From positions 12,732 to 76,731 of the forward strand of contig CAYRTH010000002.1 of assembly GCA_964427135.1 (NCBI GenBank): a DNA stretch of 64,000 bases. Direction: 5' to 3'. The translations under genes and the position numbers were made by a program. Every line of letters starts with the position of its first letter. Positions within the stretch are counted from its first letter, which is position 1. Positions 27,263-55,706 of the stretch are shown in pieces. Source of the DNA: an uncultured Phycisphaeraceae bacterium (GTDB taxonomy: Bacteria > Planctomycetota > Phycisphaerae > Phycisphaerales > Phycisphaeraceae). The notes beneath the pieces were generated by a model. It saw nothing but the letters and a program-made list of their open reading frames with translations, was not told the DNA's origin and ran no database searches.

Positions 27263-27808
27263 TCAATCCCCCGGCTCCAAATCCATGTCAATATTCAACC
27301 GATCACACAACGACTCCAGCGAACCACGCAACTTTTTCACCGACACGGTTGCCGGAACCGTCAGCAAGGCCTGCATCGTAAACAACGTCGTCCCCGCAAA
27401 CGGGGCCGACTCCTGCCTCGTCGTCAATTCCTCAATGTTCACCCCATGCTCATGCAAAATGCTCGTCACCCCATGCACGATGCCGGGTTGATCCATCGAG
27501 TAGGTCTTCAACCGATACGGCACCCCCGCCCCCGGAATTGTGCCACCGAGACCACTCACCCCTGGACTGTGCATCGCTGCCACGGTCACCTGCAAACCAA
27601 TCGTTGCCCCCGCCTGCGGTGCGCTGGTTTCCAACGATTGCAACTTCGCTGCTTCCCCTTCCACCAACAAGAGCAGTGCAAACTGACCGCGCAGGTTCAC
27701 CATGCGTGAGTCCGCGATGTTCACCCCCGCCTGGTGCAAATGACCGGTGAATTGTCCGACCAACCCCGGGCGATCGGTTCCCACTGCCGTGATGATCCGC
27801 TCTGCCAT
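27263..27808 (-). CDS. Tandem ACT-domain protein (GcvR-like)
   Basis: Contains MAERIITAVGTDRPGLVGQFTGHLHQAGVNIADSRM and a second ACT unit SMDQPGIVHGVTSILHEHGVNIEEL. Confidence 0.75.
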   Translation of the reverse strand: MAERIITAVGTDRPGLVGQFTGHLHQAGVNIADSRMVNLRGQFALLLLVEGEAAKLQSLETSAPQAGATIGLQVTVAAMHSPGVSGLGGTIPGAGVPYRLKTYSMDQPGIVHGVTSILHEHGVNIEELTTRQESAPFAGTTLFTMQALLTVPATVSVKKLRGSLESLCDRLNIDMDLEPGD

Positions 27809-27877: not shown

Positions 27878-28894
27878 TTAACAGCTTCGTTCCACCGCTG
27901 CCGCGATGCGCGCCAATGATTTCATCAGTTCCGTCAGCGCCCCGGGGGTGATCGATTGTGCCCCATCGGTCATGGCGTGTTCCGGGTCATCGTGTACCTC
28001 AATAATCAAACCATCCGCCCCAGCCGCCACCGCAGCCCGGCACATGTCCGCCACGAGCCTGGCGTGCCCTGTGCCCTGCGACGGGTCCACGATCACCGGC
28101 AAATGCGTGCGCTGATGCAGTTCCGGGATCGCTGACAACGACAACGTGTTGCGGGTGTGATCTTCAAATGTACGAATGCCCCGTTCACATAAAATCACAT
28201 TGGGGTTGCCTGCCGCGAGTATGTATTCCGCTGCCTGAAGGTATTCATCAATGGTCATGGCCATGCCGCGTTTGAGCAGCACCGGCTTGGGCTGTTTACC
28301 GCAGACTTCCAACAAGCGAAAGTTTTGCGCATTGCGTGTGCCGATTTGCAGACAGTCAGCATAACGGGCCACCAATTCGACATCGCCGGGGGTCACCACT
28401 TCCGTGATTACCGCTAATCCGGTCTGTGCGCGGGCCTCGGCCAGTATTTTCAAACCCTCTTCCGCCAGGCCTTGAAACGCATACGGGCTGGTGCGGGGTT
28501 TGAATGCTCCGCCGCGCAGTGCATGTGCCCCCGCAGCCTTCACATGCTCGGCTGCGTTCAACAATTGATCATGACTTTCGACACTGCAAGGCCCGGCCAC
28601 CACCGGCACATGGTTGCCCCCGAACACGCAATTCGTACTGACCTTCACCTGCGTCGGTTGTTTACGCATTTCCCTGGCCGCCATTTTGTACGGCGCCAGA
28701 ATGCGCATGACGCGATCGACGCCCGGGGCCTGTTCGAGTCGGTCCTTGTCTTTTTTGCGATCATCGCCGATGACCGCTACGACGGTCAGTTCCGTGCCGA
28801 CGATGGGGTGGTCCTTGAGGCCCATTTCCCGTACCAGTTCTTTCACGTGTTCGACTTGCATGGGGGTGGCATCCGGTCGCATCACGACGATCAT
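27878..28894 (-). CDS. aroF: 3-deoxy-7-phosphoheptulonate (DAHP) synthase, type I-beta with N-terminal ferredoxin-like regulatory domain
   Basis: 338 aa that aligns with my recollection of Thermotoga-type DAHPS (MIVVM...VIGDD..., [54 protein letters not shown]). AAGGAG lies 6 nt upstream of the ATG at 28894. The ORF-track N-terminal extension is rejected. Confidence 0.92.
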
Positions 28895-28944
28895 GACTCG
28901 CTCCTTGGGGCTGTGGTTGGCGATCCGCCCGACACAGGCAATGG

Positions 28945-28980
28945 CCAACAACAAAAAACCCCGACGCAGCCGCGTCAGGG
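28945..28980 (-). terminator. Intrinsic terminator inside the aroF 5' leader (candidate attenuator)
   Basis: On the minus strand: CCCTGACGC-GGCT-GCGTCGGGG followed by TTTTTTGTTGTT. It lies about 50 nt upstream of the aroF ATG and 30 nt after the stop of the aromatic-rich ORF. Confidence 0.6.
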
Positions 28981-29010
28981 TTCGTGTGCTTCTTGTTCTT
29001 GGTAGAAGGA

Positions 29011-29100
29011 TTACGTTCCCGTCGCGGCTATCCGTGGGGTGGCCCAAAAGTACGCAAAATAAAACGCAGCGGTGAACATTATGCCGTAAGTCTGACGCAT
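29011..29100 (-). CDS. Candidate leader peptide rich in Phe/Tyr/Trp
   Basis: Hand translation: [29 protein letters not shown], with an alternative ATG at 29079. Seven aromatic residues occur in an 11-residue run. No clear SD. Confidence 0.35.
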
Positions 29101-29241
29101 AAACCGGTGAAAGTCAAATATTGACCACGAACTTACATTCAAGTATCCGTCGTTGTTTTGACGAAATGAATTTCGAGAGCTACGATCCAGAAGAATCATG
29201 ATTTCCCCATAATAATGATGAATCCTTAACAAGGGTTTACA

Positions 29242-29463
29242 ATGTCATCTTTCTGGCGCGGTTTTCTTTCACTGACAGCCTTGTTCCAAGGGCGCGATCA
29301 TGCTCCCATGGATGCACCCATCGTCTATCCTTGGCCAAGCGAGTCGGCTGCGCTACACAACGATTGGAAACGTGTGGGTGGTGATTTACGACGAGCCCTT
29401 CGTAGTTATGAACGCCAGGGAACCAAAGGCCAAATGCATTTGTTTGATGTCAGTACCAAGTGA
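29242..29463 (+). CDS. Hypothetical small protein
   Basis: 73-aa ORF whose end overlaps the next gene by 4 nt (GTGA). Visibly lower GC than the flanks. Confidence 0.35.
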   Translation: MSSFWRGFLSLTALFQGRDHAPMDAPIVYPWPSESAALHNDWKRVGGDLRRALRSYERQGTKGQMHLFDVSTK

Positions 29464-29963
29464 GTGAAGATTTACCAAATTCCCCGCTCGAAAAACGACC
29501 TTCTGCTTCTGAGGTTGTCTTGGAAGCTAATCAGGAAAAGGCCGGGCGATCTGCTTTGATTGCTGCCAGCTACCGCGAAGGTCCGTTACCTGCCGCAGAC
29601 GAGTTTGCTGATTATGAGCGCGTGTTGCCCGGTGCCGCTGATCGTATTTTGCGTATGGCGGAAGCCGAACAGCAACACCGCCATCAAATGGAATCAGACA
29701 GCACCAAAGTTTTTTCCGAAGATCGACAAGCACAAAACGCACAGTTTCGACGTGGTCAATTTTTTGCCCTGTTGATTGGCTTGTTGGCTTTGCTCGTGCC
29801 CGCGATCATCGCCATGCTTTATGACAACCCCACGGCAACGATCGTGGCGGGAGTGGTGAGTGTCGTACTCGGAGGCAGCGGCCTGGTCGCGGTCATTCGA
29901 GCTTTTACGGGGCCACGGGGTCAAACTTCCGACTCTTCTTCCGATACCGTCACACGTTCATGA
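29460..29963 (+). CDS. DUF2335-like membrane protein
   Basis: Contains YREGPLPAADEFADYERVLPGAADRILRMAEAEQQHRH followed by two TM helices. Confidence 0.55.
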   Translation: MSEDLPNSPLEKRPSASEVVLEANQEKAGRSALIAASYREGPLPAADEFADYERVLPGAADRILRMAEAEQQHRHQMESDSTKVFSEDRQAQNAQFRRGQFFALLIGLLALLVPAIIAMLYDNPTATIVAGVVSVVLGGSGLVAVIRAFTGPRGQTSDSSSDTVTRS

Positions 29964-29972
29964 AGTGATGAC

Positions 29973-32459
29973 TCAAGGCCTTGGGTCCACCGTTTCCGGG
30001 CTCACATGATTGGCCGTCGCTGGGGGCAGGGGCGCGGGTGTCACCGCCTGCACCGGGCCGATCACTTTTTCCAACTCCGCCAAAGTCGCGCGATGCACCT
30101 GCGGTAACGCTCCGGGCAGTGCCTCCTGCATCACCAAAATCAGCGCCCGGGCGCGTTCGGGTTTGTCCGGCAATTGCTTTTGCGCCGCCTGCAAAAACAG
30201 GGTTACCAATTCATTCACCATCGGGTCCGATGTCGCTGTATTTTCCGCGCTCGTATCCACCGGTGCCCCCGCTGGCGCAGCCGTGACCAGTTTCGCATAC
30301 GAACCCAGCAGGTCGTAATCCGCCAGCATCAGTTTGCCTTGTGTCACCAGCAGTGCCCATTGCCGCCGCTCTTGCAAGGTGATCGACCCTTGCAACTGAT
30401 GGCGTTCGATTTTCAGGGCATCGCTCAAAGCCGGTCTCCACTGTTTTTCACCCGCGTGCAACTGCGCCCTTGCCAACAGCAACGCCCCCGCAGTCTGCGC
30501 TTGTGCCAGTGACCATTTGCTCGTGTCGTGCGTTACCGATGCCCCTGCATTGCCGTTGGCGTTGGTATTGCCGTTGCTCGTCACGCCTGCGGTCGCGCCG
30601 GGGAACAATCGATCAATCGCCGCCGTGAGCACCCGTAAACGCAACTCCGGGCCGACGCCGTCGGTCAGCAATCGTTCATCCACCCGCAACACCATCGTGG
30701 CCGACTCGCGTCCGGCCAGGTTCACCAAAGCTCGTTCCCAGCGTTCGCTCAATGCGGTGTCCGTCGGTCGCTGTTCCACCAAAAACCACATCACGCCCGA
30801 TTCGCCCGGCTGTGTGCTTTGCTCCGGCGCGTTGCCCCGGGTCAATACACCCTCGAGCAATACGGCGTACAACTCGTCGCGTTCACCCGTCGGTAACTCT
30901 TTGAGTCGTTGCACTAGCGGCCAGAGCGACCGGGTTGACTCCGCCAACAAGCGTGCTGCGGTGCGACGTACCACCGGTTCACGATGATCCAAAAGCCCTT
31001 GGAGGTACTGCCAATCGTTTTCTTCACCCACCTTTGCCAGCAAACGCACCAGCGCGGGTTCGGGTGATTCACTGTTGATCACAGCCGAGCGTGTCGCCTG
31101 TAAAACCGAGGCCTGCTGTGCTGGATTGAGCATGGCATTGGCCGACAGTGATGATGTGGTCAAAAACTCGGCCGCTTCGCGCTGCAATTGACTTTGTTGC
31201 AAAAACTGGATCACCGGTTGCACCGCTGCCGTGCGCGGCATGCGTGTCAATAACAACAAATAGGCCCGCAACAATTCGGGCCGCTTTTCCTGTTCCAGTT
31301 GCAACACCGCTGCCGCCTTGTCCGCCGCTGCCGGTTCCGCCAGGTCACGTAACACCAGCGTGGCCCGCTGCCGCAGTTCAGGGAGTTGATCGTCCATGGT
31401 GGCCAGCAATGCCTGCCGCAATTCAGGCGTAGCCATGGTCGGCCCGGCTTCGCCCACCGCCAGTTCGCACAAACTCATGCCCAGCAAGCGCACCGCCTCG
31501 ACCGTGTCCCCAAGCATGGCTGTCAGCAGTGCCGGTCGTTTGTCAGCCGTGCTGTTGCGATAAAGTGATCGTTGTGATTCAACCAGCCGCAATTCCGTTT
31601 GCCTTAGTTGATTGATCAATTGATCGCGCTGCTGATCAAGGTTGTCAAAAATCAGCCGCTGCCACTGCTCAGCCGACAGATCACGATGCGTCAGCCACCA
31701 TTGCTGCCAACGCGCCTGGTCGTAGCCGAGGTTGCTTTGACCGGTGATGCGAATCAATCCGTTGTACGCGGCGTTACGTACCGTGGCTGGTTGCAGGGGT
31801 TCAATCAGTTGCATCAGCGTGGCGGTGGCGTTGCGACTTCGCTCTACCGACAACGCATTGATTGCTGCCACCCTTGCCGGTTGAGGCAAGCGCGGGTCCA
31901 GCGCCAAAGCCGACACACCTGACAAGGTTGCCGGGTCGTTGTAACGCGACAGGGTTAAACTCAATTCCGACAATAACGGTTCCTCGGCTGACGCCAGCAA
32001 ATCCGTCAGCACCGCCACCCACTCCCTCGGCGGGGCAGCCCCCTGTGAACTCAATGCCACTCCTCGTAAAATCGCCCAGGGCACCACCGGGTCCGGCGAA
32101 GTGGCCAATTCCAAGCGCAACTGATTCCGTGCAGCCGGGTCACCCGATTCATACAACCTACCCACCGCCTGTACCCGCACATTGGCATCCGCCTGCGGGT
32201 TGCGCAGGGTTTTGAGCAACTCCGCCAATGTCGCCCCCTGTGGGTTCGCTTCCGCCGGCGTCACTAAACCCGGTACCGCCCCCGGTGTCGTGCCCGGCTG
32301 GGTCGCGGGTATGGGGGCCTGATTTTGTGCATAAACCGCAGCAACCGGACCGAGCACACCCAACACCGCCCCCACGCCAACCTGTGACCAGGTGCGGGCT
32401 TTGAACCAGGGCTTGATGGGGGACGATGGTTTCATAAAAAACAAGGCGTGATATTGCAC
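29973..32459 (-). CDS. Large secreted HEAT/ARM-like repeat protein
   Basis: 828 aa with an N-terminal signal-like segment and repeated helical units (ANVRVQAVGRLYESGDPAAR, EPVVRRTAARLLAES). An alternative start is the ATG at 32435. Confidence 0.5.
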   Translation of the reverse strand: MQYHALFFMKPSSPIKPWFKARTWSQVGVGAVLGVLGPVAAVYAQNQAPIPATQPGTTPGAVPGLVTPAEANPQGATLAELLKTLRNPQADANVRVQAVGRLYESGDPAARNQLRLELATSPDPVVPWAILRGVALSSQGAAPPREWVAVLTDLLASAEEPLLSELSLTLSRYNDPATLSGVSALALDPRLPQPARVAAINALSVERSRNATATLMQLIEPLQPATVRNAAYNGLIRITGQSNLGYDQARWQQWWLTHRDLSAEQWQRLIFDNLDQQRDQLINQLRQTELRLVESQRSLYRNSTADKRPALLTAMLGDTVEAVRLLGMSLCELAVGEAGPTMATPELRQALLATMDDQLPELRQRATLVLRDLAEPAAADKAAAVLQLEQEKRPELLRAYLLLLTRMPRTAAVQPVIQFLQQSQLQREAAEFLTTSSLSANAMLNPAQQASVLQATRSAVINSESPEPALVRLLAKVGEENDWQYLQGLLDHREPVVRRTAARLLAESTRSLWPLVQRLKELPTGERDELYAVLLEGVLTRGNAPEQSTQPGESGVMWFLVEQRPTDTALSERWERALVNLAGRESATMVLRVDERLLTDGVGPELRLRVLTAAIDRLFPGATAGVTSNGNTNANGNAGASVTHDTSKWSLAQAQTAGALLLARAQLHAGEKQWRPALSDALKIERHQLQGSITLQERRQWALLVTQGKLMLADYDLLGSYAKLVTAAPAGAPVDTSAENTATSDPMVNELVTLFLQAAQKQLPDKPERARALILVMQEALPGALPQVHRATLAELEKVIGPVQAVTPAPLPPATANHVSPETVDPRP

Positions 32460-55438: not shown

Positions 55439-55612
55439 ATGCCTGCTCAAGTAGATGCCGAAAAGTGCAACGGTTGCAAGACATGCCTGGACAGTTGCCC
55501 CAACGAATCGATCAAAATGGCCGACGACAAGGCGGTCGTCGATCGTGACTCCTGCATCGACTGCGAAGTCTGCATGAGCAACTGCCCGCAATCCGCGATC
55601 GCGATGGAATAA
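55439..55612 (+). CDS. 2x[4Fe-4S] ferredoxin (57 aa), below the ORF-track cutoff
   Basis: Hand translation: MPAQVDAEKCNGCKTCLDSCPNESIKMADDKAVVDRDSCIDCEVCMSNCPQSAIAME, with two CxxCxxCxxxCP motifs. GAAAGGAA upstream and a terminator downstream. Confidence 0.85.
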   Translation: MPAQVDAEKCNGCKTCLDSCPNESIKMADDKAVVDRDSCIDCEVCMSNCPQSAIAME

Positions 55613-55650
55613 TCCCGCTCCCCCGGTGAACGACAATCTGTGACCTTCGC

Positions 55651-55679
55651 AACCCGCACTTTCAGAGTGTGGGTTTTTT
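55651..55679 (+). terminator. Rho-independent terminator after the ferredoxin gene
   Basis: AACCCGCAC-TTTCAGAG-TGTGGGTT followed by TTTTTT. Confidence 0.7.
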
Positions 55680-55706
55680 CATAGGTTGACGTGATGACTG
55701 ACGCAT

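Follow-up and report, generated by a model that had tools for sequence, protein, structure and literature searches.

We asked what controls aroF in a 64 kb stretch of DNA (64,000 nucleotides (nt) of contig CAYRTH010000002.1, here called the window) from an uncultured Phycisphaeraceae bacterium. The gene encodes a type I-beta 3-deoxy-D-arabino-heptulosonate 7-phosphate (DAHP) synthase, and an initial annotation had proposed a Phe/Tyr/Trp leader-peptide attenuator upstream of it. Conservation among relatives, a coding signature in the leader, covariation of two competing helices and the geometry of the element all support this proposal. On this in silico support, we put the probability that a ribosome-mediated leader-peptide transcription attenuator controls aroF at roughly 85%; the transcript start, leader translation, termination or read-through and the response to aromatic amino acids are what we infer. 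The minus strand carries the leader, the terminator, aroF and a gene for an ACT-domain protein, and arrows denote window coordinates read along that strand. The parts of the element, in the order of predicted transcription, are the following.

29112..29117, minus strand: -35 box TTGACT; TTGAC(A/T) stands 17 +/- 1 nt from the -10 box in nearly all of ~58 aligned loci.
29089..29094, minus strand: -10 box CAGACT, ending 9 nt before ATG 29079; the family consensus is cATAcT / gATAcT (also cATAAT), often with TG before it.
29011..29079, minus strand: predicted leader open reading frame (ORF) of 22 codons plus TAA, with a conserved ATG just behind the promoter and a coding substitution pattern.
29044..29064, minus strand: putative regulatory codon block F6 Y7 F8 A9 Y10 F11 W12 (family motif ~FFFGYFWF); an extra F2 lies at 29076-29074.
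29018..29029, minus strand: region 2, the predicted 5' strand of the antiterminator, AGCCGCGACGGG, within the last leader codons A18 A19 T20 G21; it pairs with 28969-28980.
28989..29008, minus strand: spacer hairpin CTTCT...AGAAG, predicted by folding and enclosed by the antiterminator helix.
28956..28983, minus strand: intrinsic terminator stem-loop GAACCCTGACGC-GGCT-GCGTCGGGGTTT (12 pairs, -20.3 kcal/mol), followed by TTTGTTGTT.
28969..28980, minus strand: region 3, CCCTGACGCGGC, the 5' arm of the terminator plus part of its loop, common to antiterminator and terminator.
28947..28958, minus strand: U-tract TTTTTTGTTGTT, whose first three T's also close the stem; a T-run stands behind the hairpin in element-bearing loci.
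27878..28894, minus strand: aroF, type I-beta DAHP synthase (Pfam PF00793, E 3.8e-75, and PF18152, E 2.8e-23), the regulated gene in this reading.

Is the short frame upstream of aroF a leader peptide? The initial annotation had described an aromatic ORF running 29100->29011. That minus-strand frame does translate to 29 amino acids, including an 11-residue stretch with 7 aromatics in which F, Y and W all occur, but its start is more likely to be ATG 29079. Because ATG 29100 falls within the promoter spacer, and the conserved promoter ends 9 nt before 29079, we take 29079->29011, a 22-codon ORF with 5 Phe, 2 Tyr and 1 Trp codons, as the most likely leader; L001, the closest relative, has GTG in place of ATG 29100. 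A 73-amino-acid extension of the same frame to TTG 29232 was also considered as a gene and was rejected, as it crosses the conserved promoter. A short ORF with a common motif, M-x(3-7)-FFFGYFWF-(T/D)R(P/T)x-AAxG-x(1-4)-stop, lies upstream of aroF in ~62 of 80 relatives and ends 83-273 nt before the gene. Across 61 loci the leaders are 17-28 amino acids long (median 23) and carry on average 4.5 Phe, 1.4 Tyr and 1.1 Trp codons. Every one of the 61 has at least three Phe codons, 58 have Tyr, 55 have Trp, and all three amino acids are represented in 53.

The substitutions within this ORF are those of a coding sequence. In a codon alignment of the 61 leaders, the Phe/Tyr column aligned with F11 contains TTC 27, TTT 25, TAT 5 and TAC 4 times, and its entropy rises over the three codon positions from 0 through 0.6 to 1.0. 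The Tyr column likewise alternates between TAC (19) and TAT (15), and the Gly column between GGC (25) and GGT (10). The third base thus varies at the aromatic positions, whereas the residue is kept or is exchanged between F and Y, a pattern which suggests that the leader ORF is read as protein.

How, then, would this ORF be transcribed and translated? In the window, TTGACT is followed by a 17-nt spacer, CAGACT, 9 nt and ATG 29079, and in nearly all aligned loci the end of the -10 hexamer is only 6-11 nt from the leader ATG, leaving no space for a Shine-Dalgarno sequence between promoter and start codon. The usual distance from a -10 box to the transcription start site is ~7 nt. A start near 29082 is therefore predicted by this spacing, at the leader ATG or 1-4 nt upstream of it, and the leader mRNA would be leaderless or nearly so, with a 5' untranslated region (UTR) of perhaps ~3 nt. 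The initial annotation had noted that a start downstream of 28945 would speak against attenuation; the conserved promoter predicts 29082 instead, although this is a prediction only. A search of the whole window for such a promoter with an ATG or GTG within 5-11 nt and an ORF of 5-40 amino acids gave three matches, of which only that at 29079 has a terminator behind it.

We then considered whether the arrangement is conserved. The scan of relatives, in which one genome per species was taken, comprised 80 loci encoding aroF at 68-95% identity to that of the window. Records that name a taxon more narrowly than the phylum almost always give Phycisphaeraceae or Phycisphaerales, and about a dozen have only Planctomycetota or Planctomycetes. 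A covariance model, R1, was built from a 49-sequence alignment (A1). It gave a single plus-strand match right upstream of aroF in 70 of the 80 loci (~88%; E 1.6e-29 to 6e-8), 21 of these loci being outside the model seed. No second plus-strand copy was found in the ~7 kb loci, where R1 otherwise matched only the reverse strand, as an echo of the palindromic hairpin. The 64 kb window has one strong match to R1, at 28949-29058 (77 bits). A weak plus-strand match at 55562-55683 (10.7 bits) was rejected as unrelated; it is an ordinary terminator, AACCCGCACTTTCAGAGTGTGGGTTTTTT, behind a Cys-rich, ferredoxin-like ORF. The upstream ORF and terminator that the initial annotation had suggested seeking before aroF orthologues are thus present in 70 of 80 relatives, together with the antiterminator, so that its refuting condition of an ORF not conserved in relatives did not come true.

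These counts bear directly on the alternative that an aromatic-rich frame and an ordinary terminator stand together here by chance. Seven sites with at least 6 aromatics in 11 residues do occur in the six-frame translation of the window, and the z-score of the fold at this locus is only -1.57. However, the whole arrangement recurs in 70 of 80 related genomes spanning 68-95% aroF identity, which puts it beyond chance; the comparative data already refute coincidence, and its probability is virtually nil.

The element was also sought before other genes, by scanning metagenomes with the pattern TGGTTY-N(9-15)-GCCGC-N(35-62)-CCCYGAYGCGG. This returned at least 120 matches, almost all of them chance occurrences in GC-rich DNA; the real copies among the matches listed are L104 and L169, and both precede aroF. 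In a homology search with the aroF protein, all matches listed have at least 73% identity and come from Phycisphaeraceae.

Could the RNA form the alternative structures that attenuation demands? The terminator that the initial annotation placed behind the leader ORF is there: a 12-pair hairpin at 28983->28956 with a T-tract lies upstream of the aroF AAGGAG-ATG and begins 27 nt after the TAA stop. In alignment A1, terminator columns 96-106 and 116-126 are paired in 97.6% of cells, with compensatory changes in seven pairs. None of 500 shuffles reached the observed values, slid controls are 34-53% paired, and the RNAalifold consensus structure is the terminator itself. A scan for perfect stems had suggested that ten leader-bearing loci lack a terminator. 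This was rejected as an artefact of the scan, because folding shows bulged terminators in all ten.

The antiterminator pairing likewise proved to be present as first described. GCCGCGACGGG (29028->29018) pairs with CCCTGACGCGGC (28980->28969) in 6 base pairs, an A/A mismatch and 4 base pairs, one of them G-U. Across the family the corresponding helix (GCCGCGnnGGG with CCCnGAnGCGGC) is 87.9% paired in A1, with 22 doubly changed cells against 5.2 +/- 1.8 after shuffling. A second alignment, A2, comprises 70 distinct sequences and was fitted to the terminator, so its counts are unbiased towards the antiterminator; here 87.4% are paired, with 25 doubly changed cells against 7.0 +/- 2.4. In neither alignment did any of 500 shuffles reach the observed values, and slid controls are 34-44% (A1) and 36-45% (A2) paired. 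Individual exchanges can be followed directly. Terminator arm GATGCGGC goes with leader GCCGCA, a change from G-C to A-U seen in 12 sequences; arm CCCTGACAC goes with leader GTGTCAGG (L060, L065); and arm CCGACAC goes with leader GTGTCGG (L073). The mean energy of the duplex between leader and arm is -20.3 kcal/mol for cognate pairs, -17.9 for non-cognate pairs and -13.3 with shuffled leaders. Terminator and antiterminator helices both covary. As region 2 is itself coding sequence, the conserved AAxG tail of the peptide is largely an RNA constraint. The spacer between the two antiterminator strands often holds a hairpin in other loci too, of different sequence and with weak statistical support (mean z -0.8).

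One sub-clade (L035, L041, L070, L078 and L079) departs from this pattern upstream of aroF, at ~2810-2950 of its loci. Its leaders end in ...RPPAVLDVA, its terminator is a different one, AGCCCGGCC...GCCGGGTT, and its antiterminator strands pair less strongly and less clearly (-12.6 to -15.5 kcal/mol). L041 has an apparent GTG start and fewer aromatic codons.

Mutually exclusive, covarying helices are common to all types of attenuation, and they would be expected as well if the ribosome had no part in the choice and the ORF were incidental, the deciding factor being, for example, a riboswitch ligand, an RNA-binding protein or a tRNA contact of the T-box kind. Rfam models speak against such a factor: a cmscan of 28500-29700 at E up to 10 matched neither Phe_leader or Trp_leader nor any T-box or riboswitch, and returned only BcKCsr7, whose 21.7 bits fall far below the gathering score of 59 and amount to noise. 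Moreover, with the leader ATG at the predicted transcript start, a T-box stem I would not fit, nor is there a conserved structured aptamer upstream. An incidental ORF also fits poorly with a conserved ATG at the predicted transcript start, a conserved stop position and length, and coding substitutions. We therefore regard control by such a factor as most improbable.

The spacing that would place a leader ribosome relative to region 2 is conserved. Of 72 sequences, 64 have 18 nt from the first base of the Trp codon to region 2 and 47 have 7 nt from the end of region 2 to the stop codon; the median distance from stop codon to terminator stem is 27 nt. The footprint of a ribosome extends roughly 12-15 nt to each side of the P site. 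At the 18- and 7-nt distances, a ribosome with the stop codon in its A site would therefore hide region 2, and one stalled on any of the aromatic codons, even the last, would leave it free. The masking logic set out in the initial annotation, with an antiterminator strand hidden by a ribosome at the stop codon and exposed by a stalled one, therefore fits the conserved 18, 7 and ~27 nt.

Spacing and covariation also bear on the idea that a promoter and terminator of its own make the short ORF a separate small-protein gene, coding perhaps for a hydrophobic micropeptide rich in aromatics, and that aroF is transcribed from another promoter, downstream of that terminator. The peptide is indeed unusually conserved for a leader, non-aromatic positions included, and the distance between terminator and aroF ranges from 25 to 217 nt, which gives room for a second promoter in some loci. 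A free-standing gene would not explain why its last codons covary with the 5' arm of the terminator, or why the distances to stop codon and terminator are constant down to the single nucleotide. Nor does it account for the occurrence of the element only right upstream of aroF in the searched loci and the window, where no promoter-like site was found between terminator and aroF. We consider a separate small-protein gene very improbable. The distance from terminator to aroF is 153-217 nt in L010, L012, L017, L021 and L022, with another GC-rich hairpin in L010; a second regulatory element or promoter could occupy this stretch.

A leader-peptide attenuator built from these parts would work as follows. 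A sigma-70-type promoter would start the transcript at ATG 29079 or within ~3 nt of it, and the 22-codon leader would be translated as a leaderless mRNA by a ribosome close behind RNA polymerase. When charged Phe-, Tyr- and Trp-tRNA are plentiful, the ribosome would reach the TAA at 29013 and cover region 2 (29029-29018), which ends 7 nt upstream of it. Region 3 would then pair with region 4 to form the terminator, and transcription would stop at the U-tract without reaching aroF. Scarcity of even one of the three charged tRNAs would stall the ribosome on the F-Y-F-A-Y-F-W block and leave region 2, which begins 18 nt past the Trp codon, free. Region 2 would pair with region 3 as soon as the latter is made, around the small spacer hairpin; no terminator would form, and polymerase would read into aroF and probably the ACT gene.

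Folding with ribosome masks agrees with this scheme in part. Without a ribosome, the window sequence folds into the terminator (-43.6 kcal/mol). With a ribosome masked at F6 or F8, an extended antiterminator of -35.9 kcal/mol forms and the terminator is absent; with the mask at the stop codon, the terminator forms. Among 51 loci, the stop-codon mask gives the terminator in 50.

Several observations weigh against attenuation by a translated leader. In the window, the minimum-energy fold is still the terminator when the stall is modelled at F11 or W12 and 14 nt downstream are masked, and the terminator is lost at some stall position in only 37 of the 51 loci. Because the equilibrium fold at F11 and W12 reverts to the terminator, a kinetic argument is needed, namely that regions 2 and 3 pair before region 4 is transcribed. 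The single-sequence fold of 28890-29110, to which the z-score above refers, is unexceptional. A classical 1:2 anti-antiterminator is unsupported in A2: columns 22-25/31-34, a CGGC/GCCG mini-hairpin, are 73.7% paired with no significant covariation, and a second candidate 1:2 helix, 25-28/34-37, is 51.5% paired, likewise with no significant covariation. The window -10 box CAGACT fits TATAAT at three of six positions, compared with five of six for the family consensus CATACT. Codon sensing alone does not account for the conserved non-aromatic residues, that is, the Gly within the block and the T/D-R-P behind it. Finally, the element is missing from 10 of the 80 orthologous loci. One of these, L004, has 80% aroF identity to the window, which suggests scattered losses; the element seems to have been lost or replaced several times.

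Some of the surroundings of aroF in these relatives may be recorded here. In L011 and L026, which have no attenuator, a tRNA-like sequence lies within the last 260 nt, right upstream of aroF. In L004, L018, L049, L054 and L064, aroF follows close behind an apparent protein-coding gene.

We also compared the element with known systems. Leader-peptide attenuation of a DAHP synthase gene is already known from Corynebacterium glutamicum, and its aroR-aroF attenuator is the functionally closest precedent. There, aroR encodes a Phe-Tyr-Phe leader upstream of aroF, at which ribosome stalling raises read-through, and is reported to respond to Phe and not to Tyr (PMC11802643, PMC4046766; Neshat et al. 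2014). The likeness is one of function: both systems place a short leader with aromatic codons before a DAHP synthase gene, and C. glutamicum leader peptides are typically on leaderless transcripts, as is predicted here. The two also differ. C. glutamicum belongs to the Actinomycetota and the present organism to the Planctomycetota, class Phycisphaerae. Whereas AroR has Phe-Tyr-Phe only, the leaders described here have 4-5 Phe codons, 1-2 Tyr codons and one nearly invariant Trp codon, and so cover all three end products. The enzyme also counts among the differences, being here of type I-beta with an FXD domain, as does the lack of support for a 1:2 helix here.

The initial annotation had likened the element to pheL-pheA and trpL. 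The parts and logic of E. coli pheL-pheA and trpL-trpEDCBA do recur in the window, with end-product codons in the leader, an intrinsic terminator and an antiterminator strand that a ribosome at the stop codon would mask; by Rfam the element is related to them in neither sequence nor structure. In E. coli, a 5' UTR with a Shine-Dalgarno sequence precedes the leader ORF and the 1:2 pause hairpin is well defined, whereas the leader here is predicted to be leaderless and its 1:2 helix is unsupported. The E. coli attenuators control terminal branches for single amino acids, while the one proposed here would sit at the common entry step with codons for three. In Actinobacteria it is usual for leader peptides to be leaderless, with a hairpin and U-stretch behind them (PMC8079986). 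In Streptomyces lividans trpL1, leuL and ilvL, as is predicted here, the leader ORF stands at the transcript start, with hairpin and U-stretch before the structural gene; the phylum and the regulated genes differ, and no aroF leader is listed (PMC8079986). Within Planctomycetota, leader-peptide attenuation had been flagged at the outset as apparently undescribed. A full-text literature search for such attenuation or leader peptides in Planctomycetes, Planctomycetota or Phycisphaera found no report, a result that covers the searchable literature only and is not proof of absence; one paper merely counts short upstream ORFs per phylum (PMC4833913).

The trpL system of Sinorhizobium meliloti raises a further question, whether an attenuator of this kind might do more. 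It too is a ribosome-dependent attenuator, which releases its peptide (peTrpL) and its terminated RNA (rnTrpL) when the amino acid is plentiful, and trans roles of both have been reported (PMC7298713, PMC7968998). These functions are demonstrated in S. meliloti; for the present element their counterparts are pure speculation. The conserved peptide, with its core FFFGYFWF-T/D-R-P, or the ~130-nt RNA might be more than a passive sensor, either through arrest that tunes the stall or through action in trans on aromatic-pathway genes; we think this unlikely. An attenuator with a further layer in the stricter form of a TnaC-like arrest peptide, or of a released peptide or ~130-nt terminated RNA acting in trans, is quite improbable. 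Besides the S. meliloti precedent it draws on the FWF-(T/D)R(P/T) core, which is conserved as amino acids beyond the need of hungry-codon sensing. The RNA accounts for part of this, however, since the AAxG codons are region 2. The interchange of F and Y and the synonymous changes fit codon sensing, and TnaC-like induction by a free amino acid would run counter to the needs of a biosynthetic gene. No trans target was found, none having been looked for.

Turning to the gene itself, aroF starts at ATG 28894, behind a Shine-Dalgarno sequence AAGGAG at 28906-28901. Its product of 338 amino acids consists of DAHP_synth_1 and an N-terminal ferredoxin-like domain, DAHP_snth_FXD (Pfam). This domain has an allosteric role in Thermotoga-type DAHP synthases. 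The genes around the element and aroF are these.

27263..27808, minus strand: tandem ACT-domain protein of 181 amino acids (Pfam ACT_6 and ACT), starting 69 nt downstream of aroF.
29242-29463, plus strand: protein of 73 amino acids without a Pfam match, divergent from the leader.
29460-29963, plus strand: DUF2335 predicted membrane protein of 167 amino acids, overlapping the preceding plus-strand gene by ATGA.

The ACT gene is probably co-transcribed with aroF. Among the 80 related loci it was detected in 15 and lies immediately 3' of aroF in 11, which makes it no constant partner of the attenuator. The layered regulation suggested by the initial annotation thus holds in so far as the FXD domain and the tandem ACT protein are both present in the window, but the latter is found in few relatives. 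In L001, the closest relative by aroF (95% identity), tblastn found no match for the tandem ACT protein.

On the other side of the leader, the nearest upstream minus-strand gene ends at 29973, and the interval is filled by the two plus-strand genes, which point away from the element. The terminator therefore serves no preceding gene, in keeping with the earlier remark that no minus-strand gene ends nearby. The start of the divergent pair is ~125 nt from the -35 box of the leader promoter, so that both promoters would lie within one short intergenic region. The window aroF protein is identical to one from a stromatolite-metagenome contig (PRJNA315555), on which gene callers left the 348-nt interval from the divergent gene to aroF, with the leader ORF in it, unannotated. 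Leaders of this type are invisible to standard annotation.

What does the element mean for these bacteria? Promoter, predicted leaderless leader ORF, antiterminator and terminator make up a well-defined cis-regulatory family, present in ~88% of the sampled Phycisphaeraceae and new to Rfam. As far as the literature search shows, this would be the first leader-peptide attenuation for Planctomycetota, and Phe, Tyr and Trp all appear to be read by a single leader at the committed step of their biosynthesis. If the peptide or the RNA did act in trans, as peTrpL and rnTrpL do, it would be a pathway-wide regulator in Phycisphaerae. Experiments are feasible, since the carriers include sequenced strains with complete genomes: ZRK32 (L068; CP066225.1, around 709588-716604), Poriferisphaera sp. 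WC338 (L072; NZ_CP194516.1) and syqfu (L048). Compartmentation of transcription and translation is debated for the phylum, for Gemmata (PMC6212462, PMC6554331, PMC5394234). Because the proposed mechanism needs ribosomes close behind the polymerase, the conservation of the element is indirect genomic evidence for transcription-translation coupling in this lineage.

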